From an uncultured Gammaproteobacteria bacterium (GTDB lineage Bacteria > Patescibacteriota > Microgenomatia > PFEM01 > JAHIFH01): 64,000 nucleotides of DNA. Shown piece by piece: positions 5,972-63,123 of this stretch (the stretch's first letter is position 1; every line of letters starts with the position of its first letter). The stretch covers positions 5,794 through 69,793 of the forward strand of contig CAZZHA010000001.1 in NCBI GenBank assembly GCA_964653685.1. The letters are read 5' to 3'. Under the pieces are notes generated by a model. It was given only the letters and a program-made list of their open reading frames with translations. It was not told the DNA's origin and ran no database searches. Both the position numbers and the translations under genes were made by a program.

Positions 5972-6004
5972 AGCGTCACTTTATACTCAAAATAGATTTT
6001 CCAG

Positions 6005-7057
6005 ATGGCAACTCTAACTCAAACTGCCCAAACGACCCGGAAAGCGCTTAAATACGGCGTCATTGCCCTAGTCGTTATCTTTGTTCTGAAAATTGCCTGG
6101 GGAGTTGGGACTGATATCTGGAAAAAAATTCACCCACCCCCGCCACCACCACCAACTATGGCTTTTGGTCCTTTACCAAAATTAAAATTTCCAGAAAAAC
6201 AAACGCCTGAATTATCTTATCGCTTAGAAACTATCCAGGGAGCTCTGCCCCAATTTGACAATATTGATCGAGTTTACCTTTCACCTCAAAAACCGCCTAA
6301 TCTCTTGGCCTTGGATAGAGCCAAACAAAAAGTTCGTAAGATGGGCTTCACCGGCCAACCGGAAAAAGTTAATGAAAATACTTATCGCTGGACAACCGAG
6401 ATAACCCCAGCCACTACTTTAGAAATGAATATCAATACTGGTAATTTTCATCTTCGTTATCAATTTGAAAATGATCAAGAACTTTTAGTTCAAAAAAACC
6501 TGCCGACTAATGAACAAGCCGCCCAGGAAGCCAAAAGTTTCCTTCAAAACAATGGCCTGCTGACCGAAGATTTAGCCACTGGTAGTGCTGAGTTTGATTA
6601 TCTAAAATATATTTCCCCTAATTTGATTCCCGCCATTTCTCTTTCCGAGGCTGATTTTGTCCGGGTTAATTTCTTTAGAGCTGACCTTAATGACCTGAGA
6701 ATTTATCCACCTAACCCTAAAGAAGCCCTGGTTTCCTTTCTCTTTTCTGGCAGTCGACTCATGGGTAAACGGATTATCGAAATTAAATATACTTACCAAC
6801 CAATTGATCGCAATACCTCGGCAACTTATCCTCTTAAACCAATTAATAATGCCTGGCAAGAACTCCAATCAAAGCAAGGTTATATCGCCAATCTAGGTCA
6901 AAATGACGACAAACAGATTACCATCAGGAAAATTTACTTAGCCTATTATGATTCTGAAGAACCCCAAACTTTTATCCAGCCAATTTACATTTTCGAGGGT
7001 GACCATAATTTCTTTGCCTATGTTCCAGCCATTGACCCTACTTGGACGGAGAAATAG
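6005..7057 (+). CDS. hypothetical membrane-anchored protein with poly-Pro linker
   Basis: N-terminal TM helix, PPPPPPP linker, roughly 290-aa extracytoplasmic domain; no recognised family. Confidence 0.4.
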   Translation: MATLTQTAQTTRKALKYGVIALVVIFVLKIAWGVGTDIWKKIHPPPPPPPTMAFGPLPKLKFPEKQTPELSYRLETIQGALPQFDNIDRVYLSPQKPPNLLALDRAKQKVRKMGFTGQPEKVNENTYRWTTEITPATTLEMNINTGNFHLRYQFENDQELLVQKNLPTNEQAAQEAKSFLQNNGLLTEDLATGSAEFDYLKYISPNLIPAISLSEADFVRVNFFRADLNDLRIYPPNPKEALVSFLFSGSRLMGKRIIEIKYTYQPIDRNTSATYPLKPINNAWQELQSKQGYIANLGQNDDKQITIRKIYLAYYDSEEPQTFIQPIYIFEGDHNFFAYVPAIDPTWTEK

Positions 7058-8024
7058 TTGGGGTAATATTCTCCCAACGATGATTGCTAAAAGCCCAATC
7101 AACTAATCTAGCGGTTTCGCCAAAACGATCTTGACTACCTAAAACAACCGTAATTATTCCCCGACCATCTCGTTCAACATACCCTACTAAACATTCACCC
7201 GCTTCCTCAGTCCAACCAGTCTTCACCCCTTTCATCCCTGGTAGCCAAGAAAGTAATTCATTAATATTGTAAAGAACATGTTCAAATTGACCGGTCGTAT
7301 CAGTAACCACGATTTTGGGAGTGGCCACTATTTCACCCAAAAGTGGCTCTCTAATCACCAAGCTCGCTAATCTGGCTAAATCTAAAGCGGTTGAATAGGA
7401 ATAACCAATTATAAAATTACCTTCCTCATCAATATCCAAGCCCGTAGGGTTAACAAAATAAGTGTCGTTTAGGTTTAATTCCTTAGCTTTCTCATTCATC
7501 GCTTTAACAAACCCTTTTTCTCCACCTGGGTAGTTTTGGGCTAACAAAGTGGCCGCGTCATTGGCTGAAGCGACTAAGACACCATATAACAAATTCTTAA
7601 CCGTCATCACTTCTCCTTCTTTTAATCTCATGTCTTGACCTTGATTATTGATGCCAATAACTGTCAAAGTACTTTCCAAATCATAGTAGTCAAGGGTTAC
7701 TAAAGCCGTCATCAATTTCACGACCGAAGCCGGTAAAAGTTGAACTCTTTCATCCTTGGCAAACATAACAACAGCTGAATCACGATCAACAACAATGACT
7801 GACTTAGCCGTCAGAGATGGTGCCGTTATTCCCGCAAAATTAACTGGATAATCAGCCACTTTAGGCAACTCTAATTCAATTGGCTGAATTTTAGGTGGTT
7901 GGTAGGTAGCTTGAACAATTGAATACCAATTGTTGCTGGGAAAAAGAAAAAAAACTAGCCCAAATAAAAAAAGAAAAGCTCTTTTTATCTTAATAGTAGT
8001 CAAATCGGAATTTTTTGGATTCAC
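7038..8024 (-). CDS. D-alanyl-D-alanine carboxypeptidase (peptidase S11, PBP5/6-like)
   Basis: SxxK (ASVVK), SxN (SANDAA), KTG (KTGWT) motifs; signal/TM N-terminus. Confidence 0.8.
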   Translation of the reverse strand: MNPKNSDLTTIKIKRAFLFLFGLVFFLFPSNNWYSIVQATYQPPKIQPIELELPKVADYPVNFAGITAPSLTAKSVIVVDRDSAVVMFAKDERVQLLPASVVKLMTALVTLDYYDLESTLTVIGINNQGQDMRLKEGEVMTVKNLLYGVLVASANDAATLLAQNYPGGEKGFVKAMNEKAKELNLNDTYFVNPTGLDIDEEGNFIIGYSYSTALDLARLASLVIREPLLGEIVATPKIVVTDTTGQFEHVLYNINELLSWLPGMKGVKTGWTEEAGECLVGYVERDGRGIITVVLGSQDRFGETARLVDWAFSNHRWENITPTISPSK

Positions 8025-9385
8025 TTTTTCATTACTTTGATTTTGAGTTCTTTTAATTGAACTTCATCAACTTCACTGGGAGCCTCCATTACTGATGTCT
8101 GACCACCAGCCGTCATCGGAAAAGCAATTAGTTCTCGGACTGAACGTTCTCCCAAAGCGGCCTGTAAAAATCTATCAATTCCTGGGGCAATACCACCATG
8201 GGGCGGAACTCCATATTCAAATGCCCTTAAGAGATGACCGAATTTTTTCTCTATCTCTTTTTCCGAAAGGCCTAGAATTTTAAAAATTTTTCGCTGGATT
8301 TTGGGGTCAGTAATCCTAAGACTCCCTCCACCCACTTCCAAGCCGTTACAAACTAAGTCATGCTGCCAAGAGCGTGCTTTCATTGGGTCTTTATCTAACA
8401 AAGGCAGATCTTCATCCTTAGGAGCAGTAAAAGGATGGTGAGAAGGACTTAATTCTCTTTCTTTTGTCTTTTCAAACAAAGGAAAATCAATTACCCAAGC
8501 AAAAGCAACTACCTTAGGATCTTTTTTCTTACGCAGATCAAATTTATCACTGCCAAATTTTTTCATTGCTTCGGCATGACTAAAACGAGGAAAAGGCTTT
8601 TTAAAAACTCTCTTTTTTAAAACCTTCTCCGTTATCTCGGTAAAAAGAGTTTCAGTAAGATTAAGAATCTCTTCCTGGGTTGTAAAAGACATCTCCAAAT
8701 CAAGCTGAGTAAACTCTCCATAAGCCCGATCAATCCGAGGATCTTCATCACGAAAACAGCGGGCAATTTGGTAATACTTTTCAAATCCAGCTACCATTAA
8801 TAATTGTTTGTATTGCTGAGGAGCCTGGGGTAAGGCGTAAAACTTACCCGGCTGAAGTCGCGAGGGAACAATAAAATCACGAGCGCCTTCTGGTGTCGCC
8901 TTGGAAAGAATTGGTGTTTCGATTTCAATAAAACCTTTTTCATCAAGCCAATTACGAATGAATCTGATTACCTGATGTCGAATTTCAAGATTTCTGACTA
9001 ATCGGGGTCGGCGTAGATCAAGATAGCGATACTTTAACCGAGTCTCTTCACCAATTTGATAACCATCACCTCGAATATCAAAAGGTAAATCTTCTGATTG
9101 GGCTAAAATCTTGACCTTTTCTACCTCGACTTCAACTTCACCACTGGGAATCTTGGGGTTAATTAAATCTTTAGGTCTTTTTTTAACTTTACCTTCTACT
9201 TCAACAACGTCCGAAATCCTTAATTTCCCTAGTTTTTCTTTACCAACAATCTGAACCAAACCAGTTCTATCTTTCAAGTCAATAAAAACCAATTTACCAT
9301 GGTCGCGCCGCCGATCAATCCAACCATTAAGTCTAACTTTTTTACCTATCTTTTTAAGTATCTCTTTAATGAGAGTTCTTTCCAT
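8021..9385 (-). CDS. aspS: aspartate--tRNA ligase, short form lacking GAD insertion
   Basis: Class II motifs: FRDEDPRIDRAYGEFTQLDLEMSF, GGGSLR, GIAPGIDRF. N-terminal OB fold. 454 aa. Confidence 0.75.
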   Translation of the reverse strand: MERTLIKEILKKIGKKVRLNGWIDRRRDHGKLVFIDLKDRTGLVQIVGKEKLGKLRISDVVEVEGKVKKRPKDLINPKIPSGEVEVEVEKVKILAQSEDLPFDIRGDGYQIGEETRLKYRYLDLRRPRLVRNLEIRHQVIRFIRNWLDEKGFIEIETPILSKATPEGARDFIVPSRLQPGKFYALPQAPQQYKQLLMVAGFEKYYQIARCFRDEDPRIDRAYGEFTQLDLEMSFTTQEEILNLTETLFTEITEKVLKKRVFKKPFPRFSHAEAMKKFGSDKFDLRKKKDPKVVAFAWVIDFPLFEKTKERELSPSHHPFTAPKDEDLPLLDKDPMKARSWQHDLVCNGLEVGGGSLRITDPKIQRKIFKILGLSEKEIEKKFGHLLRAFEYGVPPHGGIAPGIDRFLQAALGERSVRELIAFPMTAGGQTSVMEAPSEVDEVQLKELKIKVMKK

Positions 9386-9423
9386 ATTTTAGATTCTATC
9401 CTCTAAAAGGATTTTTTGCAATT

Positions 9424-11067
9424 TTATTCTGGAATTTTAATGTCTTTGATTTTTAATTCCAACCGCTGAAGGCCATTCCATTGATTGAGAAAAAGATTAT
9501 AGGCAAGGTCAACTGGTTGTTTGGTTGAAAGCTGAGGTAATAATTCTCCTTGACCAAAAGCAATTACCTCAAAACCATTAACTCTAAATTTAAGATGTTG
9601 ATTATCAGCCCCAACTTTTTTAAGGTTAGCAATTCTTACTTGCCGACTGGAAAAGACCGGTTGAGGATTATTCATCCCAAAAGGGGCAAATTTATTAACT
9701 TCTTGATAAAGAGCTAAGTTTAAATCAATTAACTCAACCTCTATCTCAATTTCTATTCTCGGTCCTAATTTTTTCTTGCCTAAATCTTTTTCCGCCTTTT
9801 TTATTAATCTCTGTTTAGCTTCTTCTAATTTCTCCTGACTGACATCAAAACCAGCCGCCAAACGATGACCGCCATGATCACCAATAATATCTTTCAATTC
9901 CCGAATGGCTTCAATAATATTAAACTCTTCAATTGACCGGCCCGAACCTACCCACCGATCTTTTCTAGGCGCTAAAATAATGGCTGGTCGATAAAATTCG
10001 TCTTTTAATTTACTTGCCACCAAACCAACAACACCATGCTCATAAGACTGATGATAAATAAAAATTAAAGAACTCTCACCATCTTCTTTTAACCAAAGTT
10101 CTCGAGCGTGAAGAGTAGTTTGTTTCATTAATTCCTGACGCTCACGGTTTTTCTGATCAATTTTCTGGGCTAAACTGATAGCTCGATTTTCATCATTAGT
10201 ACAAATTAAGCGAAGAGCTTCCATCGGATCATCCATCCTGCCGCTGGCATTGATTCTTGGACCAATAATAAAACCGACTTCATAGGTATCAATCTTTTTT
10301 TTATCAAGACCAGCGAATTGATAAAGAGCTAACAAACCAGCTCGCTTAGTTTTGTTAACCTGACTCAATCCGAATTTAACAATCGAGCGGTTAGGACCAA
10401 TCAAGGGGACCATATCGGTTATTGTTCCAATGGTAACTAAATCTAAACCAAGGGGTTTGGCTTTAGATTTAATTTTTTCAACCAGCCACTTAGCCAAAAA
10501 CCAGGCTACACCACAACCAGCTAATTGGGTGGTGTGGATAATGGCTTTTGCCTTAGGTTTCTTTTTTCCAGGCTGATGGTGATCAGTAATAATCACATCA
10601 ATCCCTGTTTTTTTTGCCCGAGTTACTTGACGATAAGCAACGATCCCTTGGTCAACCGTAATAATCAATTTCACTCCCTCTTTAGCCATTTGATTAATGA
10701 TACTAGCTTTCAGACCATAGCCTTCTTCTCTGCGGGGGATAAAGGGCAGGACATCTAAACCTAATTTATTGAGGGTTTCCCACATGATGGCGGTCGCGCA
10801 AACACCATCGGTATCATAATCACCGTAAACAATCACTTTCTCTTTTTTCTTAATTGCCTGCCTAATTCTCTTAAGCGCTTTATTTAATTGAACCAAGGAA
10901 ATACCAACATCTTGAGGTGTCAATTGGTAGGGATCTTTGGGATTAAGAAATTCTTTTTGTTGTTTTTTTGTTTTCAAATTACGGTTCTTAAAAAGAGCTT
11001 TAACTATTTCTTCTCTTCTTTCTTGGAGTTTGGTAGATTTGATTCTTGCTAAAACTTTCCACCTCAT
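9424..11067 (-). CDS. recJ: single-stranded-DNA-specific exonuclease RecJ
   Basis: DHH motifs (GDYDTDGV, ITDHH) and DHHA1-like C-terminal region. Confidence 0.8.
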   Translation of the reverse strand: MRWKVLARIKSTKLQERREEIVKALFKNRNLKTKKQQKEFLNPKDPYQLTPQDVGISLVQLNKALKRIRQAIKKKEKVIVYGDYDTDGVCATAIMWETLNKLGLDVLPFIPRREEGYGLKASIINQMAKEGVKLIITVDQGIVAYRQVTRAKKTGIDVIITDHHQPGKKKPKAKAIIHTTQLAGCGVAWFLAKWLVEKIKSKAKPLGLDLVTIGTITDMVPLIGPNRSIVKFGLSQVNKTKRAGLLALYQFAGLDKKKIDTYEVGFIIGPRINASGRMDDPMEALRLICTNDENRAISLAQKIDQKNRERQELMKQTTLHARELWLKEDGESSLIFIYHQSYEHGVVGLVASKLKDEFYRPAIILAPRKDRWVGSGRSIEEFNIIEAIRELKDIIGDHGGHRLAAGFDVSQEKLEEAKQRLIKKAEKDLGKKKLGPRIEIEIEVELIDLNLALYQEVNKFAPFGMNNPQPVFSSRQVRIANLKKVGADNQHLKFRVNGFEVIAFGQGELLPQLSTKQPVDLAYNLFLNQWNGLQRLELKIKDIKIPE

Positions 11068-31699: not shown

Positions 31700-31773
31700 C
31701 GGGGTGTGGCGCAGTTGGCTAGCGCGCACGCATGGGGTGCGTGAGGTCGCCGGTTCGAGCCCGGCCACCCCGA
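31700..31773 (+). tRNA. tRNA-Pro (anticodon GGG)
   Basis: Hand-folded cloverleaf: acceptor CGGGGUG/CACCCCG (C1-G72), D-stem GCGC/GCGC, anticodon stem CACGC/GCGUG, loop AUGGGGU, T-arm GCCGG-UUCGAGC-CCGGC, discriminator A. Confidence 0.9.
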
Positions 31774-31778
31774 CAAAA

Positions 31779-32129
31779 ATGAAAATTTTTCTTCGTAAAG
31801 ATAAAAAACTTCGTGACCCAGGTAATTTTTATTTTGGCGATTACGGTGAAATTCCTATTGGTATTTCTTTAACAACAATCAATGAAGACAATCTTGACGA
31901 AAGCAAAGACACGAAACATTATCATCAAAAAGGCTATGAATTTTATTTTACTATTAAAGGTAAAGCTATTATTGAAATTAAAGATAAAGAAGTCGTTTTA
32001 GATAAAAATCATCTGATTATGGTCGAACCAGGTGAAAAACATTACGTTAAAAAAATTCTTAAAACTCCTTTTTCTGTGTTATCAATTTCCACTTTAAAAG
32101 ATAAAACTGATAAAGTTGTTGCGAAATAA
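31779..32129 (+). CDS. small cupin-like protein (start moved to ATG after tRNA-Pro)
   Basis: ORF-track N-terminus overlaps the tRNA; first ATG after tRNA at 31779 (MKIFLRKD...); cupin-like G..H.H region. Confidence 0.45.
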   Translation: MKIFLRKDKKLRDPGNFYFGDYGEIPIGISLTTINEDNLDESKDTKHYHQKGYEFYFTIKGKAIIEIKDKEVVLDKNHLIMVEPGEKHYVKKILKTPFSVLSISTLKDKTDKVVAK

Positions 32130-50668: not shown

Positions 50669-50962
50669 TTAATCAATTCCCCAGAATTTCTTCTCGCCCT
50701 CTTCATCTGGACCAATGAATTTCAGTTGTAAAAAATCCTTTAAGTCACTAATAAAATGGCCAATGCCAAAAGAAAAAGATAATTGTCCTAAAAGATGCTG
50801 ATAAAAAAATAAACCAAGCAGCATTAACATCACCCCATAAATCCAATGATGAGGAGCCCAAGTGGGATTATTAAGTTTCATATTAAGATAATAATGGCTC
50901 CATCTTCCAAGTAGATATCCTATTAAAGCAGCAATGACGAAAAAGAGGATTTTCCAGATCAT
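50669..50962 (-). CDS. hypothetical small membrane protein
   Basis: 3 predicted TM segments; no family recognised. Confidence 0.4.
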   Translation of the reverse strand: MIWKILFFVIAALIGYLLGRWSHYYLNMKLNNPTWAPHHWIYGVMLMLLGLFFYQHLLGQLSFSFGIGHFISDLKDFLQLKFIGPDEEGEKKFWGID

Positions 50963-50990
50963 TTTCTTAATTCTACCAAACCAAACGATA

Positions 50991-51017
50991 TTGACCTTTT
51001 AATTTTTCTGCTATAAT
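50991..51017 (+). promoter_or_regulatory. promoter for 51030 gene (TTGACC-15-TGCTATAAT), 12-nt leader
   Basis: Hexamers by eye; no SD before ATG. Confidence 0.4.
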
Positions 51018-51029
51018 TATTTACATTAT

Positions 51030-51590
51030 ATGCTGGTTAAAAAAATTATTCTCATTATCCTTGCTTTAGGAGCAGTTGGTACCTTAAGTTTTTTTCTTCT
51101 TAATAAAAATAGTTTGCCAGAGGTTACTCAGCAGGTTGGGATGGAAAAAGAAAATCTCGATGACCAATGGTTAACCTATACCAATGATTCTTATCAATAC
51201 GAAATTAAGTATCACCGTGACTGGCACAAGCAGGAAGAAAATGAACCACCCTACCCTCCGCCACCTGCGGGAATGAACTTCAGCCGGCGTTGGCTTGAAC
51301 CACTAGAGGTTTGTGATTTTCAGATTTCATCAAGCGATATCGTTGATAATTTTGAAGGGGAAATTGAGAGTCTCTCCCAAGACACTAATAAGCAAATGTC
51401 TCAAGCAGTAATCGCTGGCCAAAAGGCAACCAAGTTCGTTAGTTCAACCGAAAACCAATTAGTTGAGAGCTATTACCTAACTTATAAAAGAAATTCATTT
51501 AATTTGGGATTTAATATTCTCCGAGGGGAACACTTTAATACCTGTCAACAGGTCTTTAACCAAATGATTGCTTCTTTTAAGCTTTTATAG
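51030..51590 (+). CDS. hypothetical membrane-anchored secreted protein
   Basis: N-terminal TM; PPYPPPP stretch; no family recognised. Confidence 0.4.
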   Translation: MLVKKIILIILALGAVGTLSFFLLNKNSLPEVTQQVGMEKENLDDQWLTYTNDSYQYEIKYHRDWHKQEENEPPYPPPPAGMNFSRRWLEPLEVCDFQISSSDIVDNFEGEIESLSQDTNKQMSQAVIAGQKATKFVSSTENQLVESYYLTYKRNSFNLGFNILRGEHFNTCQQVFNQMIASFKLL

Positions 51591-52272
51591 CTTTTATTAA
51601 TAATCTTGTTGGCATTGAAGAATATTTCTTATAGTCTTTTTTATTCTTTTTAGCCTTTTTACCCACAGGGGTGGGTTCTTCAACACTTAACAGTTCAAAA
51701 CCAAAACTCATAATCGTGTTTATATAGTCAGAAAACTTTTTCGGGTGATATTTAATTTCTGTTCCCCAAGGTGTTTTCTCTATCTTTGCTTTATTACTAA
51801 AGTATTCTGAATGATTACTAACAAACCGAAGTGGATGAATAGTAATAAAAAATAGATATCCTCCTTTTGCTAACCATCTAGAAATACTCTCCATTGTTTT
51901 CTTAAAATCCTTTTGACTTAAATAATTAAAAGTCATATTACTTACGACAAGGTCTAAGCTTTCATTCCGTAGTTTTAAATTAGACAAGTTTGCCTGTATA
52001 AACCTTATATTGGGAAAAGAATTTCGGGCGATATTTAGCATATCAGGACTTATGTCAGTTCCGATAAGATTTTTTTCCCTCACTCCCAAATCAAGAAGTA
52101 GTTTTATTGTTCTTCCAGTTCCACACCCAGCATCAAGAACTCGCATCTTACTTTCCAATATTGGTTTTAAATGCCTTTCCATTGCTGGTTTTTCTACAAA
52201 TTTCCAACTAAATGATTTCTCTGAAAACTGAATATATTTAGCAGCTTGCACACCTGAGTATTTTACTTTCAT
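51577..52272 (-). CDS. class I SAM-dependent methyltransferase
   Basis: Motif I VLDAGCGTGRT; motif post-I DISPDML. Confidence 0.8.
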   Translation of the reverse strand: MKVKYSGVQAAKYIQFSEKSFSWKFVEKPAMERHLKPILESKMRVLDAGCGTGRTIKLLLDLGVREKNLIGTDISPDMLNIARNSFPNIRFIQANLSNLKLRNESLDLVVSNMTFNYLSQKDFKKTMESISRWLAKGGYLFFITIHPLRFVSNHSEYFSNKAKIEKTPWGTEIKYHPKKFSDYINTIMSFGFELLSVEEPTPVGKKAKKNKKDYKKYSSMPTRLLIKAIKA

Positions 52273-52339
52273 GGGGAGTCAATTATATCACTAGCTATGT
52301 AAATACAAAAACCCAGTAAATCGGGCTTTTCTATCCCTG

Positions 52340-52367
52340 ACTCCCTATCGTGGACGAAGTTAGAACT
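52340..52367. repeat. conserved 28-bp upstream motif, copy 1 (ACTCCCTATCGTGGACGAAGTTAGAACT)
   Basis: 22/28 identical to copy at 54027-54054; lies 50 nt from TGATATAAT -10 of the methyltransferase gene. Confidence 0.7.
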
Positions 52368-52377
52368 GGTTTGAGCT

Positions 52378-52800
52378 TTAAATGCTAAGAATATAAATAC
52401 TTAATATTGCTAAAACAAGCCCTGTTATTTTTATTAATGTCAGTCTTTCGCCAAAAAATAGCAGACCAATGATCGCCGAAAAAATAATTGTAGAAATTGA
52501 CAAAAGAGGTAATCCAAGGCTAATAGGAGCCTTCTTTTGATACATCAAAAAATAAAGAAGGCTGCCAAAAGCACTAAAAATTCCTGCTAAACAAGCCAGT
52601 TTTACTCCTTTTGAGGTAATGGTTATTTCTTGACCAGTTGTTTTGAAAATAAAAATTAACCCCAAAGTAATTATTGCTGAGGCGACTGAGAGAGAAATTG
52701 ACCCAACAAGAGCATGTAGATGATTGCTGCTCAATTTAAGAAAAGCGTTGTAGATGGCAAAGAAAAAACCAGCGGCTATGCCAAAAATTACCCAATTCAT
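52378..52800 (-). CDS. EamA/SMR-like 4-TM small membrane protein (DMT superfamily half-unit)
   Basis: 140 aa, four TM helices, EamA-like spacing. Confidence 0.5.
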   Translation of the reverse strand: MNWVIFGIAAGFFFAIYNAFLKLSSNHLHALVGSISLSVASAIITLGLIFIFKTTGQEITITSKGVKLACLAGIFSAFGSLLYFLMYQKKAPISLGLPLLSISTIIFSAIIGLLFFGERLTLIKITGLVLAILSIYILSI

Positions 52801-52810
52801 GTTTTCATTA

Positions 52811-52845
52811 TACCAAACAAAAAAAGCCCATTAGCTTGGGCTTTC
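52811..52845 (-). terminator. intrinsic terminator (AAAGCCCA-AGCUAA-UGGGCUUU + U7)
   Basis: Perfect 8-bp stem then UUUUUUUGUUUGG on minus strand; immediately followed by TGGTATAAT and the EamA-like ATG. Confidence 0.7.
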
Positions 52846-52934
52846 TGAAATTAGTTCGGCCAATAAAGCCATTTACAAACTCCAAATGTAAATTGGTCCA
52901 ACCAAAAACCTTTTGCTGGGAAACCAATTTTAAA

Positions 52935-53426
52935 TCACGATCCGGCTATTTTTGTCAATTTGATAACCGTAACGACTCCATTCTTTTCATTTCCCTGAAC
53001 CCTGGCCATAGAACCAAGCTCTAATTTGCTTTTATCACAAACTTCTTCCCCACTACCCAAATCACATTTACTTGAGGCATTAAAGGCGAGATTAGCTGTG
53101 TTAGCTGGCCGACCGGGTGATTCGTAAAGCAAAACCCAATTACCAGTTTGCCTTTCGGCATTAGCATCCCAATCAGTTAAATTGCCTGTCTTATCAAAAT
53201 TCTCGACCAAAACCGGCTGGCTATCTGATTCGTCAAGGTCTTGTTCAGCCTCTTCTATTGGAGCACTTGTCTCTTCGGAACTACTACCAGTGGGTAATTG
53301 AATTCCTGGCAAATTTATTGGTTTCTTGATTATTTTTGCCCCACCATAAACGACTATGGCTCCTACCACCAAAAGAATAATCAAAATTAACAAAGCCGCT
53401 CCTTGTTCGTTTTTTGATTTTCTCAT
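52935..53426 (-). CDS. hypothetical secreted protein
   Basis: N-terminal TM/signal; SD AGGGGGTGAGG; acidic linker. Confidence 0.45.
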   Translation of the reverse strand: MRKSKNEQGAALLILIILLVVGAIVVYGGAKIIKKPINLPGIQLPTGSSSEETSAPIEEAEQDLDESDSQPVLVENFDKTGNLTDWDANAERQTGNWVLLYESPGRPANTANLAFNASSKCDLGSGEEVCDKSKLELGSMARVQGNEKNGVVTVIKLTKIAGS

Positions 53427-53469
53427 CTTTCCTCACCCCCTTTCTTTTTCCTTTAAAAGGTTCCTAATT

Positions 53470-53494
53470 CTCTCCTGTGGATAAAGTTAGAACT
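53470..53494. repeat. upstream motif, degenerate copy 2 (CTCTCCTGTGGATAAAGTTAGAACT)
   Basis: 3' half GTGGA..AAGTTAGAACT matches copy 1 at 16/18. Confidence 0.5.
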
Positions 53495-53961
53495 TACTCA
53501 CTAATTTTCTTTTCTAGACAAATATCTATCTCTAAGTACCCATTACTACGATAAAAATCCAAGGCTTCTCTATTTTCCACATAGCAATTAAGATATATTT
53601 TCTGGAAACCTTCTCGCTTTGCCCAATCTGTTATGGTGTCTAATATTTTTTTACCGATTCCTTGTTTCTTTTTTTCAGGTATTACTCCTAGATTATCAAT
53701 TTCAAAATACCTACTTTTACGATATGATACTTCTTTTTCTTCGCCATTCGCGTATCCAATCATCTGTCCATCCTCTTCAGCGATCAAAAAACACCCCTTT
53801 CTACTTCTAATTGCTTCTTTGAAATATTTCTCTCCCTGAGGGGTATAGGCAAAGTCCTCAACAGCATCTTCGTCATATTCAGAATTATTCATGAAGATTT
53901 GCTTATTCAATTTTTTTACGGCTGGTAAATCGCGGATCGTTGCTTTCCGGATAGTTATCAC
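53494..53961 (-). CDS. GNAT family N-acetyltransferase (GTG start)
   Basis: Acetyl-CoA motif A: VIPEKKKQGIGKKIL; GNAT beta strands. Confidence 0.8.
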   Translation of the reverse strand: MITIRKATIRDLPAVKKLNKQIFMNNSEYDEDAVEDFAYTPQGEKYFKEAIRSRKGCFLIAEEDGQMIGYANGEEKEVSYRKSRYFEIDNLGVIPEKKKQGIGKKILDTITDWAKREGFQKIYLNCYVENREALDFYRSNGYLEIDICLEKKISE

Positions 53962-54026
53962 AATTGAATTATATCAAAAGTGGTTCAACAATTTTTATCT
54001 GAAGTAGAACATCTATCTTCAAACTT

Positions 54027-54054
54027 ACTCCCTATCGTGGGCGATGTTCAGACT
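54027..54054. repeat. conserved 28-bp upstream motif, copy 3 (ACTCCCTATCGTGGGCGATGTTCAGACT)
   Basis: 51 nt from TGATATAAT -10 of the GNAT gene. Confidence 0.7.
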
Positions 54055-54252
54055 AGTTGGGAACAAATTTAAGCAAGAAAAATCTAATAAATGAAACCAA
54101 AGATACTTGTTCGCAGAATCACTCGGGAAGAGAGTGATTAGAGCTGGATAAATGACCGGACAAAAATTTATCATATGTTGATATAGTTATAAATAGTCTC
54201 CGCAGGAAGTCTCACTTCAGGTTTAGGAGTTTGATAGTAAGTGGTTTGTTAT

Positions 54253-55827
54253 TTATTTAAATATTTCTCTAAGAAAGCTAAGGATTTTTTGCCAAAAGGT
54301 TAGTTTTGTTTCAGACAAAGGAGTAATTATTGGTTCTGGATTTGAAGTAATTTGTGGTGTGGGACTTGGTTGTTGTTCTATTTTTTCTTTAATCAGTTCT
54401 GTTGTCTGACCCAAGACTTCATTTTCCGAGGTTGTCTTTTTAGCTACAGCCAATTTTTCAGTTTTGGCAGAAATGTAATTAGACCACCTTCCCGGAGCGC
54501 AGCCGTTGCCGGCTCTGATTGTAAAATAATAGGTAGTGCTTGGGGCAAGAGCTTTTATAGTGTAGTTGACTACTCCAATCTTTTGAGCGGAATTAAATTG
54601 GGTGCCAAAACGCCAGTCGCCTTCCTTATAACCATAGGCAATAAAATAATAGGAAACATAATCGGTAACCGGCATAAAATATAAAGTGGCGGAATTTTCA
54701 GTGGTATCAATTTGAAATAATTTTGGCGCAGTTAAAGGCGGCCAATCTCCACAACCAAGGGCAGAAGTAGAACTTGTAGAAGTAGAACCGGTATCTTCTG
54801 CTACCGTAAAAGTAGTGAAATGGGCAGCCGTAAAAGTAACTAAATGAGTCGTTCGGTTATAACTTAATCCGGACACAATGCCACCAGTATCAGTTTGTCC
54901 ATCAACTAATATTTTTGGGCTGTTTAGGGTAATACTATACATCGTTAAAGAAGCTTGGGTATCGGTTAAATCTTTAATGAGGTCAGCGTCAAGGCTGATT
55001 ACTCCCTGGGAAATGCTTAATTTGCTGTCTAATGATTGCATCCAGGTCAAAGCATCGCGATCAGTGAAATTCATCTCCGCCAAAAAAGTTATTTTGCCAA
55101 TGTTTTCTCCACCTTCACTTTTCAGGAAATATAATCCGGAGATACGGGAAAAGTCGCCTTGATCGCCTAAGTTTGTGGCTACACCTTCATTGGTCATTTG
55201 TGTAGTAATAGTACTGATTGTTGGACATTCACCAGAACCTGGGTTGCACCATCCGCGAGTAGGAGAAGCGGCCGAATTCCAGGTTTGTTCATCTAAGTTG
55301 TAATAGGCAGATTTGCCTTGTTCTATGGTAACGCCAGTGGCGTCACTCGGATCAGCACCAGGATCACAAGTTTCGCTACCGTACTTTACGGCATAAACAC
55401 TATTGCTCTCATCTCTGAAAATTACCAAACAGGCGCCATCATCAGGGATACGAGTGTCATTATCGGTCGCGAAAGTCAAAAAACCGCCGCGGGGGACGCT
55501 CCCACTTAAATCTTGTGAATAGAAATAAGTGTAGTTTGGTTCTGTACCCTGATAAATTACCAATCTCCACCCGGAAAGACTAAGAGCTGTGTCCTGATCA
55601 GGATTTAGCAGCTCAATCCATTCTTCGCCGCCAGCACTAGGCTGCGCTACAAACTCGTCAATCATTACCACAGGATCACCATTTGCCCTTACCGGAGAAA
55701 TTCTTACGACAACGGCAAAAAAAGAGAAACAAAGAAGAAGCAGAAAAACAAAAACTAGTTTTTTCATCACTAAAAACATTTTTACCTTTTTTGATAAAAA
55801 TGTCAACATCTTATCCATCCACCACAT
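54253..55827 (-). CDS. secreted lamin-tail-domain (LTD) + fibronectin type III surface protein (likely true start M21, about 55767)
   Basis: LTD signature EFVAQPSAGGEEWIELLNP...LSLSGWRL; C-terminal FN3-like region. Confidence 0.55.
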   Translation of the reverse strand: MWWMDKMLTFLSKKVKMFLVMKKLVFVFLLLLCFSFFAVVVRISPVRANGDPVVMIDEFVAQPSAGGEEWIELLNPDQDTALSLSGWRLVIYQGTEPNYTYFYSQDLSGSVPRGGFLTFATDNDTRIPDDGACLVIFRDESNSVYAVKYGSETCDPGADPSDATGVTIEQGKSAYYNLDEQTWNSAASPTRGWCNPGSGECPTISTITTQMTNEGVATNLGDQGDFSRISGLYFLKSEGGENIGKITFLAEMNFTDRDALTWMQSLDSKLSISQGVISLDADLIKDLTDTQASLTMYSITLNSPKILVDGQTDTGGIVSGLSYNRTTHLVTFTAAHFTTFTVAEDTGSTSTSSTSALGCGDWPPLTAPKLFQIDTTENSATLYFMPVTDYVSYYFIAYGYKEGDWRFGTQFNSAQKIGVVNYTIKALAPSTTYYFTIRAGNGCAPGRWSNYISAKTEKLAVAKKTTSENEVLGQTTELIKEKIEQQPSPTPQITSNPEPIITPLSETKLTFWQKILSFLREIFK

Positions 55828-56105
55828 ATTGGAATTATTAGGGTAATCAGTTTACCAAAGTCATAAAGGAACCCAGAACCACTGTCTGTCTGGGTCGCTT
55901 TGATCTGAAAGGGAGTGATTTTAATAAGCTTGTCTAAGAAATCAGCCAACGTTCTTGAAAAATGACTCTTGTAGATGTAGGAGAAAGTAAATTCAGAAAT
56001 GATATCAATGTCAGTAAGAATATACCTCTTGATTCCATGTTCGAATCTAACATTTGAAGTTGCGAAGAATATTTAAATTTGCTTAACTTATATTAGAGTT
56101 AGAAA

Positions 56106-57272
56106 ATGATGAAAATAATTACAGATAAATTAACCGCCCTGAAGAAAATAAAGCTATCCAAACTCCATTTAATACTCATAGCTTTGGGCTTATTGGTTTT
56201 ACTAGGTACAATCTCTGCTATTTATTTACAGAAAAGGCAACAAGGTTTCTTAAGAGAGGGGTCTGGACAACCACAGGGTTGGGGACAAAGACCGGGAGGA
56301 GCTCAGGATCTCGGCGAACCGCCATCGACCTCTCTCAAACCGCGTTGGAGTGGTTCTATTCCCAAACCCCCCAAAGAAAAGATTACCTACTACAAAGGCA
56401 TTTGGGGTGCGACATGGATTTATCCGGAAGAACATTCCAATCTTAAACCTGAACCTGAAAAATACCGCGGTTGGGGAGTGAATATTATTAATATCTCCCC
56501 AGGTTTTGAAATTAACAAAAACGGCGAGGTGCGCTACCCTTTGGACTTCCCTACTTATGAAGATATGGATGCCAGGATTGGCGAAATTGCCGAAATGTTT
56601 TACAAAGAAGATATTTATTTGGCCATGACGATTCAGGTTCATTATAAAGAAGAGTTTGTCCGCGGGGCCGAATGGGGCGGAGAAACGGCTTATATACCCA
56701 AGGAAAAGACACAAATTCCTGGATATTTCAAAAATTTTGACAATATTGTTGTTGATATGGCCAAAATCGCCCAAAAATATCACTTGGAATTGTTTTCGCC
56801 GTTAGGTGAACCGGAGAATGTATTTTACGATCCTAAATTAGCTTCCGATTGGAGTCAACAGGTTCTGCCCAAGGTTAAGAAATACTACAAAGGTAAAGTT
56901 TATTACAAGGGTGATTTACACAAAGGAGAGGGGGACAATATGAACTTCAGAGGCTATGATGTTTTAGGAATTATGCCTCACCCGGCTGAGTTAGCGTATA
57001 ATTTTAAGGCTCTCCGAGAAAAAGTGGTTATCAATATGGACAAAGGTCTGGCTTGGGCCAAAAGAGATGGAGTAAATGAGGTAGTCGTAGCCGAACATGG
57101 ATATGAAGGAGGGGGCAAGATGTGGCCTGCAGAAAACTTCGATATCCTCTTGGAAGAAAGCAGTAAAAGATTAAACGGGATTTTTTTAAGCGATCCATTT
57201 CCAACAGTTCTAAAAACAAAACAAGGTGAGCAAATTATCTCTGTGATGAAAAGGTGGTTTTCCTCCAAGTAA
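56106..57272 (+). CDS. hypothetical membrane-anchored secreted protein, possibly glycoside-hydrolase-like
   Basis: N-terminal TM; large extracytoplasmic domain; weak GEP/EHG motifs only. Confidence 0.35.
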   Translation: MMKIITDKLTALKKIKLSKLHLILIALGLLVLLGTISAIYLQKRQQGFLREGSGQPQGWGQRPGGAQDLGEPPSTSLKPRWSGSIPKPPKEKITYYKGIWGATWIYPEEHSNLKPEPEKYRGWGVNIINISPGFEINKNGEVRYPLDFPTYEDMDARIGEIAEMFYKEDIYLAMTIQVHYKEEFVRGAEWGGETAYIPKEKTQIPGYFKNFDNIVVDMAKIAQKYHLELFSPLGEPENVFYDPKLASDWSQQVLPKVKKYYKGKVYYKGDLHKGEGDNMNFRGYDVLGIMPHPAELAYNFKALREKVVINMDKGLAWAKRDGVNEVVVAEHGYEGGGKMWPAENFDILLEESSKRLNGIFLSDPFPTVLKTKQGEQIISVMKRWFSSK

Positions 57273-57312: not shown

Positions 57313-57621
57313 TTACATCTTGATTTCAATATCAACGCCTGCGGGCATTTCGAGGTGCATTAAGGAGTCAATTGTTTTACTAGTTGGTTCAAGAATATCA
57401 ATTAATCTTTTATGAGTAAGAATTTGGAATTGTTCTCTGGCGTCTTTGTCAGTGTGGGGACTGGTGGTAACCGTAATCAGTTTTCGGTGGGTTGGTAAAG
57501 GCACAGGACCCACTACCTTGGCACCACTAGCTAAGGCTGTTTCTAAGATTTTTTCGCAACTTTCATCGATGACTCGATGATCATACGCTTTTAAACGTAC
57601 CCTTATTCTGCCTTTTGGCAT
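57313..57621 (-). CDS. rpsJ: 30S ribosomal protein S10
   Basis: [15 protein letters not shown] motif. Confidence 0.9.
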
Positions 57622-57627
57622 TTTTTC

Positions 57628-58818
57628 TTAGGCAATAATTTTACTAATTACTCCCGCTCCGACAGTGTGGCCACCTTCGCGAATAGCAAAACGGAAGCCT
57701 TCCTCCATGGCAACCGGCTGAATAAGTTTGACTGTCATCTTGGCATTATCACCAGGCATGACCATTTCCACTCCTTTAGCGAGAGTGACTTCACCGGTTA
57801 CGTCTGTAGTTCGAACATAAAATTGAGGTTTGTAACCGCTAAAGAAAGGAGTGTGACGACCACCTTCTTCTTTGGTTAAGATATAAACTTCTGCCTCAAA
57901 TTCTTGATGAGGCTTGATGGTACCGGGCTTGGCTAAAACTTGGCCTCGCTCAACGTCTTTCTTTTCAATTCCTCGAAGGAGGATGCCGACGTTATCGCCA
58001 GCCTCACCTTCATCAAGAGTCTTGCGGAACATTTCAACACCAGTGACCGTGGTTTTTTGGGTATCGCGTAGACCGACAATTTCGATTTCATCACCAACTT
58101 TAATTTTACCTCGTTCGATTCTCCCGGTAACAACCGTCCCTCGACCTTTAATAGAGAAAACATCCTCAAGAGGCATCAAGAAAGGTTTATCTAAAGGCCG
58201 TTTAGGTGTCGGAATATTTTCATCAACCGCCTTCATCAGCTCAAGAACGGTTTTTTCTGCTTCAGCATCGCCCTCAATGGCCTTAGCGGCGGAACCTCGG
58301 ATAATCGCAATTTTGTCACCAGGGAATTTATATTTAGTTAAAAGTTCCCTGATTTCCATTTCAACCAGATCAAGCATCTCTTTGTCCTTAACCAAATCAA
58401 CTTTATTTAAGAAAACGACCATGGATGGCACATCAACTTGACGAGCTAAGAGAATGTGCTCTCGAGTTTGAGGCATTGGACCATCATCGGCGGCAACAAC
58501 AAGAATGGCACCATCCATTTGGGCAGCCCCAGTAATCATGTTTTTGATAAAGTCTTTGTGTCCGGGACAGTCAATGTGAGCATAGTGACGCTTTTCCGTC
58601 TCATACTCAATGTGGGAAATAGAAATTGTCAAACCTCGTTCTTTTTCTTCAGGAGCGTTATCAATCTGATCAAAGGGGATATATTTTGTCCCCGTATTGG
58701 CTTTCTCCAAAACCTTGGTAATGGCCGCGGTTAAAGTCGTCTTGCCATGGTCAACGTGACCAATGGTCCCAATATTAACGTGAGGTTTTTCTCTTTTAAA
58801 TTTTGTTTTTTCAGCCAT
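57628..58818 (-). CDS. tuf: elongation factor Tu
   Basis: [19 protein letters not shown] motifs. Confidence 0.95.
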
Positions 58819-58890: not shown

Positions 58891-61017
58891 TTATTTTTCT
58901 CTGCCAGAAGTAGCTCCAGCTTTAGTGGAAACAATTTTTTCCGTAATATTAGCCGGCACTTCTTGATAATGAGAAAATTCCATATAGGGATTGGCCCTAC
59001 CCTGAGTAATACTCCTCAAAGTGGTGGCATAACCTGAAACTTCGGCCAAAGGAATGAGAACCGTAATTACCCGAATATTGCCCCGTGCCTCTGTTTCCTG
59101 AATTTGAGCCCGCTTACTAGACAAATCGCCAATAACATCACCCATAAACTCATCAGGCGTAGTCACTTCTAATTTCATAATCGGTTCTAAGAGAACCAAA
59201 TTGGCTTGCTTGGCCGCCGCTTGAAAACCCATTGAACCAGCAATCTTAAAAGCAATATCTGAAGAATCAACTTCATGATAACTGCCGTCATAGACCGCCA
59301 CAGACACATCAGTCACCGGATAACCTACTAAAATTCCTTTATCCATCGCCTCCTTAACACCCTTTTCAATCGCCGGAATGTAAACAGAAGGAATGGCTGT
59401 TCCTCGAATTTCATTGGTGAACTTAAAGCCCTCACCTCGACCTAAAGGCTCCAGTCTAAGAAAACAATGACCATATTGACCTCGGCCACCTGATTGACGA
59501 ATATATTTACCTTCGCCTCTAGCCATCTGGGTAATTGTTTCCTTGTAGGCGACTTGGGGCTGTCCAGTCCTGGCTTCGACCCCAAACTCCCGCTTCATTC
59601 GGTCAACAATAATTTCCAGATGCAACTCACCCATACCAGAAATAATTGTCTGGCCAGTCTCCCGATCAGACTTAATTTGAAAAGTCGGATCTTCTTCAGA
59701 AAGACGATTAAGAGCATAACCAAGTTTTCCTTGGTCAGCCCGGGTTTTAGGTTCAATCGCAAGAGAAATGACCGGCTCAGGAAAAGTAATCGATTCTAAA
59801 ACAATCGGCTTGGCTTTATCACAAAGAGTATCACCCGTCGCCGCTTCTTTCAAACCAACAATGGCAATAATTTCTCCGGCTTCAGCCGTTTCAATTTGCT
59901 CTCGATTGTTGGCATGCATCAGCAGTAAACGCCCCACTCTTTCAGACCGTTTTTTGGTACTATTGTAAACTTCTTTACCGGCTTTTAATGTTCCCGAATA
60001 AATCCGAATATAAGTTAGTCTACCCACATGGGGGTCAGATTGAATTTTAAAGGCTAGAGCCGCAAAAGGGCCCTTAGGATCACAAGTTCTTTTTTCTTCC
60101 TCACCCGTTTCAGGGTTAGTCCCTTTAATGGCCGGAACATCAAGCGGATTGGGTAAAAAATCAACCACTCCATCTAAAATAGGTTGAACACCTTTATTAC
60201 GCAAGGAGGCTCCGGTATAAACCGGGACAAGTTGATTAGCGATGGTTGCCTGACGAATGCCTGTTTTTAATTCTTCAAGGCTAATTTCTTCACTCCGTAA
60301 AAATTTTTCTGTAAGATCTTCATTGGTTTCGGCCACTAATTCAACCAATTCTTCTCGATACTTTTTCGCTTGCTCAACTAGATTGGCGGGAATTTCTTTG
60401 GTTTCAAATTTCTCTCCGGTTTTATCCTTTTCTTCCCAAATCAGGGCTTTTTGATTGAGAACATCAATTACACCAACAAAATCTTTTTCACTACCAATCG
60501 GCATTGTAAGAACAATCGGCTTAGCTCCTAAACGATCTTTAATCATCCCCACTGTCCGTTCAAAGTTTGCTCCCAATTTATCCATCTTGTTAATGAAGCA
60601 AAGGCGGGGAACATGATAACCGTCAGCTTGGTGCCAAACTTTTTCTGACTGAGATTGAACCCCTTCCTCAGCATCAAAAACAACAATCCCGCCGTCTAAA
60701 ACTCTTAAAGAGCGTTCTACTTCAGCCGTAAAATCAATATGGCCGGGAGTATCAATAATATTAACTCGATAGTCACGCCAAAAAGCGGTTGTCGCTGCTG
60801 ACACAATCGTAATCCCCCGTTCCTTTTCTTGCTCCATCCAATCCATCTGGGTAGTACCTTCATCGATATCGCCGATTTTATAGCTCTTGCCAGTATAATA
60901 AAGGACCCGCTCAGTTGTGGTCGTTTTACCAGCATCAATATGGGCAATAATACCAATGTTCCGAACTTTTTCAATCGGGACTTTTCTTATGGTAACTGTT
61001 TCGTTTTTTTCGGCCAT
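58891..61017 (-). CDS. fusA: elongation factor G
   Basis: [21 protein letters not shown] motifs; domains II-V. Confidence 0.95.
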
Positions 61018-61132
61018 CTTTCTGTCTTTATTTTATCAATTTTTAGGCAAATAAAAAACCGCCTCTGTCAAGAAGTAGGTTTGCTTCGAGTTTATTCTAA
61101 CAAAATCCTATTGATTACTCAAACGTAATGTC

Positions 61133-61489
61133 CTAATAACCTCGTTCCTTCCCTGAACTCCTTGTTTTCTCAAACAACTCTTGTTGAATCTCATCATCTT
61201 CTGTTTCGAAATGATGGTCGCTTGCAAAATCTCTTACTTCCATCATTCCAAACATGCCTGAACCATCAAAAACAACAAAAGTGCCATGTTGAGGTAATCT
61301 ACAATTACCTACGACCCTATTAGTTTGGTGGTGTTCAATGCAAAGCTCGGTTAAATCACCTTCAGCTCTGATAACCAGTCTATCCTTCATCCAAGCAACC
61401 ATCTCACTCCTTCTAAGGGAAAATGAACCTTCTATTTCGTCCCAACAATCCCGACAGATTGCCTTTGCTGTGGGTTTTCTAATCGACAT
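61133..61489 (-). CDS. hypothetical Cys-containing protein (118 aa)
   Basis: CRDCW...C...C; acidic tail; no family recognised. Confidence 0.35.
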   Translation of the reverse strand: MSIRKPTAKAICRDCWDEIEGSFSLRRSEMVAWMKDRLVIRAEGDLTELCIEHHQTNRVVGNCRLPQHGTFVVFDGSGMFGMMEVRDFASDHHFETEDDEIQQELFEKTRSSGKERGY

Positions 61490-61550
61490 AAACTAAAAAA
61501 TTGCTTTTGGGCAGGTAATAAAATAAAAATAATAGAATCCTGACTTCTAT

Positions 61551-62126
61551 TCAAAAACCTCTTTGTCGGTAAAGCTTAGGATCAATCACCTTTACCATAG
61601 CTTGAGTATCAAGAGTTTCATCTAAAAATTGGTTAATCTTTTTTACTTGACTCGCTGGCTTTTTCAAAACTTGATTATAGTTAATATAGATGACTTCAAT
61701 ATTGGGTTGCTTGCCCAACCATAATTTAACCTCTTTTAAATGCTTTTTGAATAAGGTAGCCATCTTTTTATCACTGGCTTTATTCACTGGTTTGCCTCTT
61801 CTTTTAAGCATTTGTCTTTGGGAAGCAAGAATCTCTTCCATCTTCCGTTGCATAAAAATTACTTTGTAATTGTAGTCTTTGGGTAAATATTTTAAGAATT
61901 CAGACACCATCTTAACGGTCTTACCTTGAACCTGTTTAAGCCAAGTTTTATCCCGCCTAATCTGTTTAACTTTTTCAAATTCATAATAACCTTTAGGGTT
62001 ATCCTCATCGGCCTTTCTCAGATTATCTGTCAAAACAGACATCCCACCGGCTTTCATCATCTTCATCATCATTGAGGTACCAGAACGAGGTAAACCAGAA
62101 ACAATCGTAACCGTTTTTTGTTTCAT
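61551..62126 (-). CDS. sulfotransferase-family protein
   Basis: 5'-PSB loop IVSGLPRSGTSMM resembles PRSGTT of PAPS-dependent sulfotransferases; roughly 190 aa. Confidence 0.45.
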   Translation of the reverse strand: MKQKTVTIVSGLPRSGTSMMMKMMKAGGMSVLTDNLRKADEDNPKGYYEFEKVKQIRRDKTWLKQVQGKTVKMVSEFLKYLPKDYNYKVIFMQRKMEEILASQRQMLKRRGKPVNKASDKKMATLFKKHLKEVKLWLGKQPNIEVIYINYNQVLKKPASQVKKINQFLDETLDTQAMVKVIDPKLYRQRGF

Positions 62127-62162: not shown

Positions 62163-62639
62163 CTACCACCTGAAGTGAGCAAAGGCTTTATTAGCTTCAG
62201 CAATCTTATTAATTTCTTCTTTCTTAGCGACCGCGCCGCCTTCTTTTTCAGCCGCCTCGATTAACTCAACCGCTAACTTCTCATAAAAGTGATGGTATTC
62301 CTTACTAGGTCTTGCTTGGGCGGCCTGAATAAGCCAACGAATAGCCAATGATTCTCGCCGGTCACCTTTAACCGGTATTGGTACTTGGTAAGCAGCACCG
62401 CCAACCCGACGAGGTCGAACCTCCATTTGAGGTTTAACATTTTCCAAAGCTTGATGAAAAACTTCCAAAGGATTACTCTTGGTTTTTTCTTCAATAAGTT
62501 TAAAAGCCTGATAAACGTGTTTTTGAGCAACTGATTTCTTTCCCTGACGCATCGTCCGATTGATCAATTTGGTTACTAACCGGCTTTTGTAGATCTCATC
62601 AGGAATGACCGTCCTTTTTGGTGCTTTTTTACCTCTCAT
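62163..62639 (-). CDS. rpsG: 30S ribosomal protein S7 (start trimmed to MRGKKAP)
   Basis: S7 core. Confidence 0.9.
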
Positions 62640-63123
62640 TGTTTTCTCCTTTCTCTTCTTCTTTTTTCTCAGTTCTTTCTTCACTCTTTCCGCCACCAGC
62701 CGCTGGTGTAGCGGCGGCGCCCTTACGGGTACCATATTTGGATCGAGCCTTTTTTCTGTCCTCTACGCCAGCCGTATCAAATTTACCTCTAACCACATGA
62801 TATTTTACTCCTGGTAAATCTTTAACTCGACCACCTCTAACTAAAACAACCGCATGCTCAGCCAAATTATGGCCTTCACCAGCAATATAGGCGGTCACTT
62901 CTTTTTTATTAGAGAGCCTAACTCGAGCCACTTTTCTTAAAGCCGAGTTAGGTTTCTTAGGAGGCATTGTTTTGACATAAAGAACTACTCCTCGTTTAAA
63001 GGGATTGGTCACTTCTGTCATTCGCCTGTCTTTGGTATTAAAAGTTTTTCGCAAGGCAGCCGCTTTGACCTTTTTTCTTGTTTTCTTTCTGCCTTTACGA
63101 ATTAATTGACTGATTCTTGGCAT
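62629..63123 (-). CDS. rpsL: 30S ribosomal protein S12 (roughly 35-aa Gly/Glu-rich C-terminal extension overlapping rpsG start)
   Basis: [28 protein letters not shown] motifs. Confidence 0.9.

Follow-up and report, generated by a model that had tools for sequence, protein, structure and literature searches.

In the 64,000-nucleotide stretch analysed here (the window; contig CAZZHA010000001.1), which belongs to the tiny genome of a groundwater bacterium of the Microgenomates, within the candidate phyla radiation (CPR), the str operon is interrupted between rpsG and fusA by two genes, one encoding a 191-aa protein of the sulfotransferase family and the other a 118-aa protein. The explanation that we consider the most probable, with moderate confidence, is that, in one Microgenomates lineage, two unrelated accessory genes have settled between rpsG and fusA, and that the sulfotransferase was acquired and depends on 3'-phosphoadenosine 5'-phosphosulfate (PAPS). 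The insertion into the operon is genuine, if of a rather ordinary kind, containing an acquired member of a known enzyme superfamily, and nothing links either inserted gene to translation. In the existing annotation, the two products appear as a 'sulfotransferase domain-containing protein' and a hypothetical protein.

The genes rpsL-rpsG-fusA-tuf form the canonical str operon of E. coli and Bacillus. In the window, the order on the minus strand is rpoC (its end only), rpsL, rpsG, the 191-aa open reading frame (ORF), the 118-aa ORF, fusA, tuf, and rpsJ. An earlier reading of the sequence alone (the sequence-only reading) had proposed two same-strand genes inserted into an otherwise standard str operon, and the ORFs found at 61133-62126 agree with it. 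Both ORFs are genuine genes rather than chance ORFs, since a relative (L001/L002) separated from the window by a synonymous divergence (dS) of 0.17-0.30 has kept both of them at unchanged length, and the ratio of non-synonymous to synonymous divergence (dN/dS) between the two amounts to 0.15 in the sulfotransferase gene and 0.28 in the small ORF, compared with 0.04-0.09 in rpsG, fusA, and tuf. In the str region of a near-identical genome, recovered from the Rifle aquifer and also assigned to the CPR (0.65 Mb, 706 genes, 90.7% complete), the DNA of the sulfotransferase gene and of fusA is identical to that of the window, and the remaining genes differ at 1-3 sites. The question of whether relatives carry the insert can be answered for the close ones: it is present in three CPR lineages, namely that of the window and two others whose sulfotransferases share 95% (P0001) and 78% (P0002) identity with it.

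The 191-aa Protein as a Compact Sulfotransferase

The product of the first inserted gene (61551..62126, minus strand) begins MKQKTVTIVSGLPRSGTSMM and is a member of the sulfotransferase family by both profile and fold. Its scores exceed the Pfam gathering cut-offs of Sulfotransfer_3 (PF13469; 38.1 bits against 27) and Sulfotransfer_1 (PF00685; 36.5 against 22), and both domains are precomputed for all 120 of the 120 homologues listed. Structure comparison assigned it the alpha/beta sulfotransferase fold, and the best fold matches were all sulfotransferases. In an alignment of 54 homologues, the 5'-phosphosulfate-binding (5'-PSB) loop G11-L-P-R-S-G-T-S18, the Arg/Ser pair R94 and S102 of the 3'-phosphate-binding (3'-PB) site, and the C-terminal tail LYRQR are invariant, as are D34, D42, E49, and K72, the candidates for the catalytic base; the window protein retains all 39 family-invariant residues. 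HMMER alignments place the GLPRSGTS loop on the PKSGTT motif of mouse SULT1D1 and human SULT1A1 and SULT1B1, and R94/S102 on the R and S of 'vyvaRNakDvvvS' in 2zpt and 1cjm, which we take to be the 3'-phosphate-binding R130 and S138 in the numbering of mouse estrogen sulfotransferase. The Pfam scores, the fold, and the invariant loop therefore confirm the family that had been assigned earlier from the PAPS-type 5'-PSB loop.

The 191-aa gene would encode a cytoplasmic PAPS-dependent sulfotransferase of a compact, strongly conserved, and uncharacterised family. In such an enzyme, the G-L-P-R-S-G-T-S loop would hold the 5'-phosphosulfate of PAPS, R94 and S102 would hold the 3'-phosphate, and an invariant acidic residue in the D34...R37 or DEDNPKGYYEFE segment may deprotonate the acceptor hydroxyl.

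Distribution and Origin of the Compact Family

At least 596 species genomes, counted as one genome per species, encode the compact family of ~190 aa, and the best 80 of these were used for the survey of loci. In the homologue search, only 15 of the 8,000 scored candidates were not significant. Among the genomes listed, most hosts are Chloroflexota (Anaerolineae, Ardenticatenaceae, and Caldilineales), and others belong to Bipolaricaulota, KSB1, Blastocatellia, Cytophagia, Desulfobacteraceae, Planctomycetota, Nitrospirota, Latescibacterota, Tectomicrobia, and Bathyarchaeia; no CPR genome was found among the best 80 of the at least 596. The best matches from other phyla reach 60-67% identity over the full 190 aa, and the window protein is on average 56% identical to the non-CPR members, which share 57% among themselves. 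In a neighbour-joining tree, the window protein and its 95% and 78% identical counterparts group together in a single clade that is nested within a set of Anaerolineae and unclassified bacteria. This single nested clade, together with the patchy and phylogeny-independent distribution of the family, indicates that the CPR lineage probably gained the sulfotransferase by a single horizontal acquisition.

A recent transfer that would still be visible in composition was ruled out, as the GC content of the gene (0.349), its GC content at third codon positions (GC3, 0.354), and its codon usage are all ordinary for the window. The acquisition would thus have taken place long enough ago for the composition to match that of the host, with purifying selection acting since. 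Copies of the gene in Bathyarchaeia (L038, L039, L044, and L054) are up to 65% identical to bacterial ones, which implies a putative cross-domain transfer of a very constrained gene.

Relatives with 32-56% identity are also encoded on nine IMG/VR viral contigs (L102-L110; L107 is 341 kb long), and these copies could be auxiliary metabolic genes or come from misclassified cellular contigs. An origin in a defence system or a phage was considered for the inserted genes and rejected: neither protein matched the PADLOC profiles of anti-phage defence, the PHROG profiles of phage families gave only weak partial matches to function-unknown families (best E ~1e-3), and the viral contigs with relatives number only nine. 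The literature search returned no paper relevantly linking sulfotransferases to Patescibacteria.

Gene Neighbourhoods and the Probable Acceptor

A possible link with PAPS shows in the neighbourhoods of family members in other phyla, where genes for ATP sulfurylase (Sat) and/or APS kinase (CysC) lie directly beside the sulfotransferase gene in 4 of the 80 genomes; about 0.2 such adjacencies per 80 genomes would be expected by chance, a rough estimate that assumes 1-2 such genes per genome. In L029, CysC begins 12 nt past the end of the sulfotransferase gene; in L057, a Sat-CysC fusion abuts the gene upstream; in L064, such a fusion is situated 200 nt downstream; and in L091, Sat is found downstream. 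The L057 locus, from Tectomicrobia (3969-6564), has its Sat-CysC ending at 5966 and the sulfotransferase match starting at 6001 in an ORF open from 5704, so either the two genes are in close coupling or a frameshift may have fused them. At the L029 locus, from an unclassified bacterium (3595-9510), a Wzz/BY-kinase with a C-terminal Tyr cluster is followed by the compact sulfotransferase, CysC, a second sulfotransferase of 305 aa with a GVHRSGTT loop, and a phosphodiesterase/sulfatase-type enzyme, which makes it an apparent sulfated-polysaccharide cluster.

A Pfam census of 145 immediate neighbours recorded DtxR/FeoA (seven), sulfatase (six), Wzz/GNVR BY-kinase (four), P-type ATPase (four), family 2 glycosyltransferase (GT2, three), and APS kinase (two); the DtxR/FeoA neighbours probably reflect the synteny shared by Anaerolineae. 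No conserved neighbourhood emerged, as three contexts inspected by hand were wholly different and the largest cluster of neighbours covered 7 of 65 loci. Nevertheless, the PAPS-synthesis, sulfatase, Wzz/BY-kinase, and glycosyltransferase neighbours in other phyla, although a minority of contexts, favour an assignment of the compact family as PAPS-dependent O-sulfotransferases whose acceptor is likelier to be a sugar or glycoconjugate than a protein. For the CPR enzyme, a glycan acceptor, for example an exopolysaccharide, a surface glycan, or a precursor of one, would likewise be favoured over a protein.

The 118-aa Small Protein

The second inserted gene (61133..61489, minus strand) encodes a protein with four Cys residues (C12, C15, C50, and C64) and the acidic stretch ETEDDEIQQE. 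The CxxC motif and the two further Cys described in the sequence-only reading are present, but only C12, C15, and C50 are conserved, C64 being Tyr in the closest relatives. Across 16 sequences of the family, conservation is at least 90% at C12, C15, C50, H53, and H54, H68 is invariant, and F71 and V85 are also conserved. This small Microgenomates family thus shares a C-x2-C ... C-x2-H-H ... H pattern, and the conserved Cys3/His arrangement is a probable metal site, putatively zinc-binding. The predicted fold is a beta-barrel with a C-terminal helix, for which no recognisable fold relatives were found.

The protein had been taken for an orphan, a description that holds only in part. A word-indexed search retrieved only two clusters; an exhaustive search found 15 cluster representatives of 115-125 aa at E <= 1e-3, and a profile search added members from Candidatus Roizmanbacteria, also Microgenomates. 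The family, judged from these sequences, is native to the phylum and restricted to Microgenomates, and the 118-aa gene would encode a probable Cys3/His metal-site protein with no functional tie to the sulfotransferase. Relatives of the small ORF were found at other loci in Roizmanbacteria and in further Microgenomates. Those with ~30% identity recur, in Microgenomates of other lineages, near argS and the genes of ComEC and an M16 peptidase (L017 5001-5363; L018 4621-4983; L021 5001-5363), which constitutes a second semi-conserved location, and two further distant relatives lie one beside an SNase gene and one beside an HTH_3 gene.

Independence of the Two Genes

The small ORF can occupy this site with no sulfotransferase gene beside it. 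This is the case in L015 and L016, where rpsG is followed by the small ORF and then by fusA, the gap between rpsG and the small ORF being 70 nt with no sulfotransferase remnant in it; L015 shares 80% identity with the window in S7, 86% in EF-G, and 59% in the small protein. Conversely, neither a small-ORF homologue nor the str operon was found beside any of ~90 non-CPR family members inspected (the 80 genome loci and those inspected by hand). In the P0002 lineage, S7 is followed by the sulfotransferase, by a small-ORF homologue of 86 aa, and, where the contig ends, by a partial gene, probably fusA. Since the small ORF lacks the sulfotransferase in L015 and L016 and the sulfotransferase lacks the small ORF in other phyla, the two genes are separable and do not constitute a functional module; the idea that they form a unit was therefore abandoned.

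Position in the Operon and Expression Signals

Besides the rpsG-fusA spacer, the rpsJ-rplC junction (50669-57272) is also interrupted, by ~7 kb with eight ORFs on both strands. These encode an S-adenosylmethionine (SAM) methyltransferase, an EamA transporter, a GNAT acetyltransferase, a 524-aa LTD/fn3 surface protein, a GH113-like protein, and three family-less products, and the set of genes after rpsJ differs in the 95% relative (L001). It seems that the junctions of ribosomal operons act as landing sites in general in this lineage, so the position of the insert in the str operon looks incidental rather than functional.

The intergenic gaps are 36 nt between rpsG and the sulfotransferase gene, 61 nt between the latter and the small ORF, and 115 nt between the small ORF and fusA. 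Given these short gaps and the lack of any predicted terminator-like hairpin or site between rpsG and fusA, read-through transcription of the inserted genes is plausible, and would probably start from the rpsL-rpsG promoter. The three spacers were also considered as sites of a regulatory RNA or a terminator, and both were rejected, as no fold was better than that of shuffled sequences and there was neither an Rfam match nor a terminator call. Shine-Dalgarno-like motifs are absent before both inserted genes and present before rpsG and tuf; their absence means little, because only 32% of the genes called in the window have one.

Just upstream of fusA, a conserved non-coding block of 46 nt (61030..61075, minus strand) reads CTTCTTGACAGAGGCGGTTTTTT.TTTGC.TAAAAATTGATA.AAT and contains TTGACA. 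It is identical at 43 of 46 positions in the window, L001, and the distant L015 (S7 80% identical), and its flanks diverge. A simple promoter scan did not call the block, whose spacing is not that of a canonical sigma-70 promoter; its RNA fold was not significant (z = -0.16) and it had no Rfam match. This near-invariant, TTGACA-containing block nevertheless raises the possibility that fusA-tuf may have signals of their own. High constitutive expression of the inserted genes, which had been suggested from their position among translation genes, is not supported by these observations: the two genes lack a Shine-Dalgarno-like motif, and fusA may be served by separate signals.

Weighing of the Explanations

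Several points weigh against an acquired, PAPS-dependent enzyme acting on a glycan. Cytosolic SULTs can be aligned with the protein only as far as about their residue 230, and the last ~65 SULT residues are absent from the compact family; these presumably include the RKGxxGDW loop, which contacts the 3'-phosphate and adenine. PAPS binding, as judged from the alignment, is therefore not guaranteed to be canonical. No RKGxxGDW-type loop was found in the 191-aa protein, a feature that defines cytosolic SULTs and not the whole superfamily, and the invariant LYRQR tail may substitute for it. Motifs of Sat, CysC, CysD, CysH, and CysQ were not found within the 64 kb window, and a coarse published trait table gives the near-identical 0.65-Mb, 90.7%-complete genome fermentation as its only trait and 0 for sulfate-to-sulfite; the text of that paper does not name the markers behind the trait scores. 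The supply of the PAPS donor is therefore unexplained. The acceptor assignment is based on about 15-20% of neighbourhoods, and some of the adjacency to sulfatases may be due to chance, these enzymes being abundant in some of the phyla concerned. Finally, two orders of events fit the data, namely a gain of the sulfotransferase at a site that already held the small ORF, and its loss from the L015 lineage.

The same lack of PAPS-pathway motifs in the window and of a sulfate activation trait in a 0.65-Mb genome, together with the missing Shine-Dalgarno motif upstream of the gene, could be explained if the sulfotransferase were a stranded passenger that arrived in a genome unable to make PAPS and is now inactive or decaying. 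We regard this as unlikely, since the dN/dS of 0.15, the intact length, and the retention of 39 of 39 family-invariant residues are not those of a decaying gene, which moreover has been retained across lineages diverged to 78% identity and has a host-like composition, hence is not a recent arrival; the missing motif carries little weight in a window where 32% of genes have one. Furthermore, some CPR genomes carry sat, cysC, and cysN according to reviews (PMC9698310, PMC10221324). Purifying selection and the retention of all invariant residues argue that the sulfotransferase is probably in use by the CPR cell. A more ambitious proposal, slightly less probable again, is that the ~190-aa enzymes are a near-universal minimal sulfotransferase class acting on one conserved acceptor, and that the CPR bacterium, having no PAPS pathway of its own, draws on PAPS from a host for the sulfation of a surface glycan or a metabolite required in episymbiosis, with placement in the operon ensuring expression during growth; a minimal class with one conserved acceptor would explain the 50-66% identity between bacterial phyla and archaea.

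The adjacency of the two genes on the same strand, with short spacers within the str operon and in three lineages, and the best structural matches of the 191-aa protein to TPST1 and TPST2 would also be consistent with a translation-linked module, in which the sulfotransferase sulfates the small protein (as in a RaxST/RaxX-like pair) or S12, S7, EF-G, or EF-Tu, its position reflecting this role. This is very improbable, however, given that the small ORF occupies the same site without the sulfotransferase in L015 and L016 and that none of the ~90 non-CPR members lies in a str operon or beside a small-ORF homologue. The 118-aa protein was excluded as a Tyr-sulfation substrate because its sole Tyr, Y118, is not conserved, even in the sulfotransferase-associated copies, and its acidic stretch contains no Tyr; the TPST matches lead by just 0.6 Z units, with a sequence match limited to the P-loop (E 0.2-0.5). 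The least credible of the alternatives is a mislabelled P-loop nucleotide or small-molecule kinase, as the loop SGLPRSGTS lacks the Walker A Lys of GxxxxGK[ST] and all of the best profile and fold matches are sulfotransferases; the kinase outcome that the sequence-only reading had set as a refutation does not apply. An acquired sulfotransferase next to an unrelated, phylum-native gene continues to be the preferred explanation.

Of most interest is the question of where a genome of 0.65 Mb obtains its PAPS. Should PAPS synthesis truly be absent from the CPR genome, a retained enzyme under selection would imply the import of an activated sulfate donor from a host, which would be a testable dependency. 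The locus also draws attention to a very large and tightly conserved compact sulfotransferase family, with thousands of sequences from Chloroflexota to Bathyarchaeia, for which no assigned substrate was found.

Flanking Genes

The first gene of the str operon, rpsL (62629..63123, minus strand), encodes ribosomal protein S12 (Pfam Ribosom_S12_S23, E 1.7e-34), whose 164 aa include an insertion within the protein and, at the C-terminus, a Lys/Glu-rich extension of ~30 aa; the same length is found in relatives, and the coding sequence overlaps the start of rpsG by 11 nt. The upstream boundary of the insert is formed by rpsG (62163..62639, minus strand), identified from the ORF list and encoding the 158-aa ribosomal protein S7 (Ribosomal_S7, 158 aa in relatives), which is preceded by an AAGGAG-type Shine-Dalgarno motif. 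The downstream boundary is fusA (58891..61017, minus strand), which encodes the 708-aa EF-G, as identified from the ORF list and the Pfam domains of the identical gene in relatives. It is followed on the same strand by tuf (57628..58818; EF-Tu, 396 aa), identified from the ORF list and relatives, and by rpsJ (57313-57621). Elsewhere in the 64 kb, the sole tRNA gene is a tRNA-Pro(GGG) at 31700-31774, which is overlapped by a spurious 141-aa ORF (31704-32129).

Comparison with Known Systems

The compact family has in common with the PAPS-dependent superfamily the P-R-S-G-T-S loop, the R94/S102 pair, and the alpha/beta fold; however, it measures only ~190 aa, compared with 250-300 aa for enzymes of the superfamily. 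The best structural matches of the 191-aa protein are the protein-tyrosine sulfotransferases TPST1/TPST2 (PDB 5wri, 3ap3), with which the bacterial RaxST is presumably to be grouped among the closest known systems. Identity to TPST1/TPST2 is 16-20%, and their lead over an olefin-synthase sulfotransferase domain is only the 0.6 Z units given above. The profile matches are limited to residues 7-26 (the P-loop; E 0.2-0.47), and the profile comparison gave no TPST match at the sequence level beyond the P-loop. Unlike TPST1/TPST2, the compact enzyme is ~90 residues shorter and has no membrane anchor, and the neighbouring 118-aa protein offers no conserved Tyr in an acidic context as a TPST-type protein substrate. 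The olefin synthase/CurM domain (PDB 4gox), StaL (2ov8), and the mycobacterial Stf0, Stf1, and Stf9 (1tex, 2zq5, 2z6v) occur within natural-product or glycolipid pathways or cluster with them, whereas members of the compact family are stand-alone genes with no conserved neighbourhood. An example of a sulfated-exopolysaccharide cluster is that for synechan, xss, in Synechocystis (PMC8205485), and the L029 locus of the compact family shows the same kind of gene mix; the likeness is by gene mix alone, and a minority of family members lie in such clusters, with the CPR copy in none.

With respect to the canonical str operon, the window has the identical gene order and strand from rpsL to tuf, followed by rpsJ, and differs by the two genes between rpsG and fusA and by the accessory genes (~7 kb) that separate rpsJ from rplC. 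The most conserved operon of a 0.65-Mb CPR genome can thus still accept and keep foreign accessory genes.
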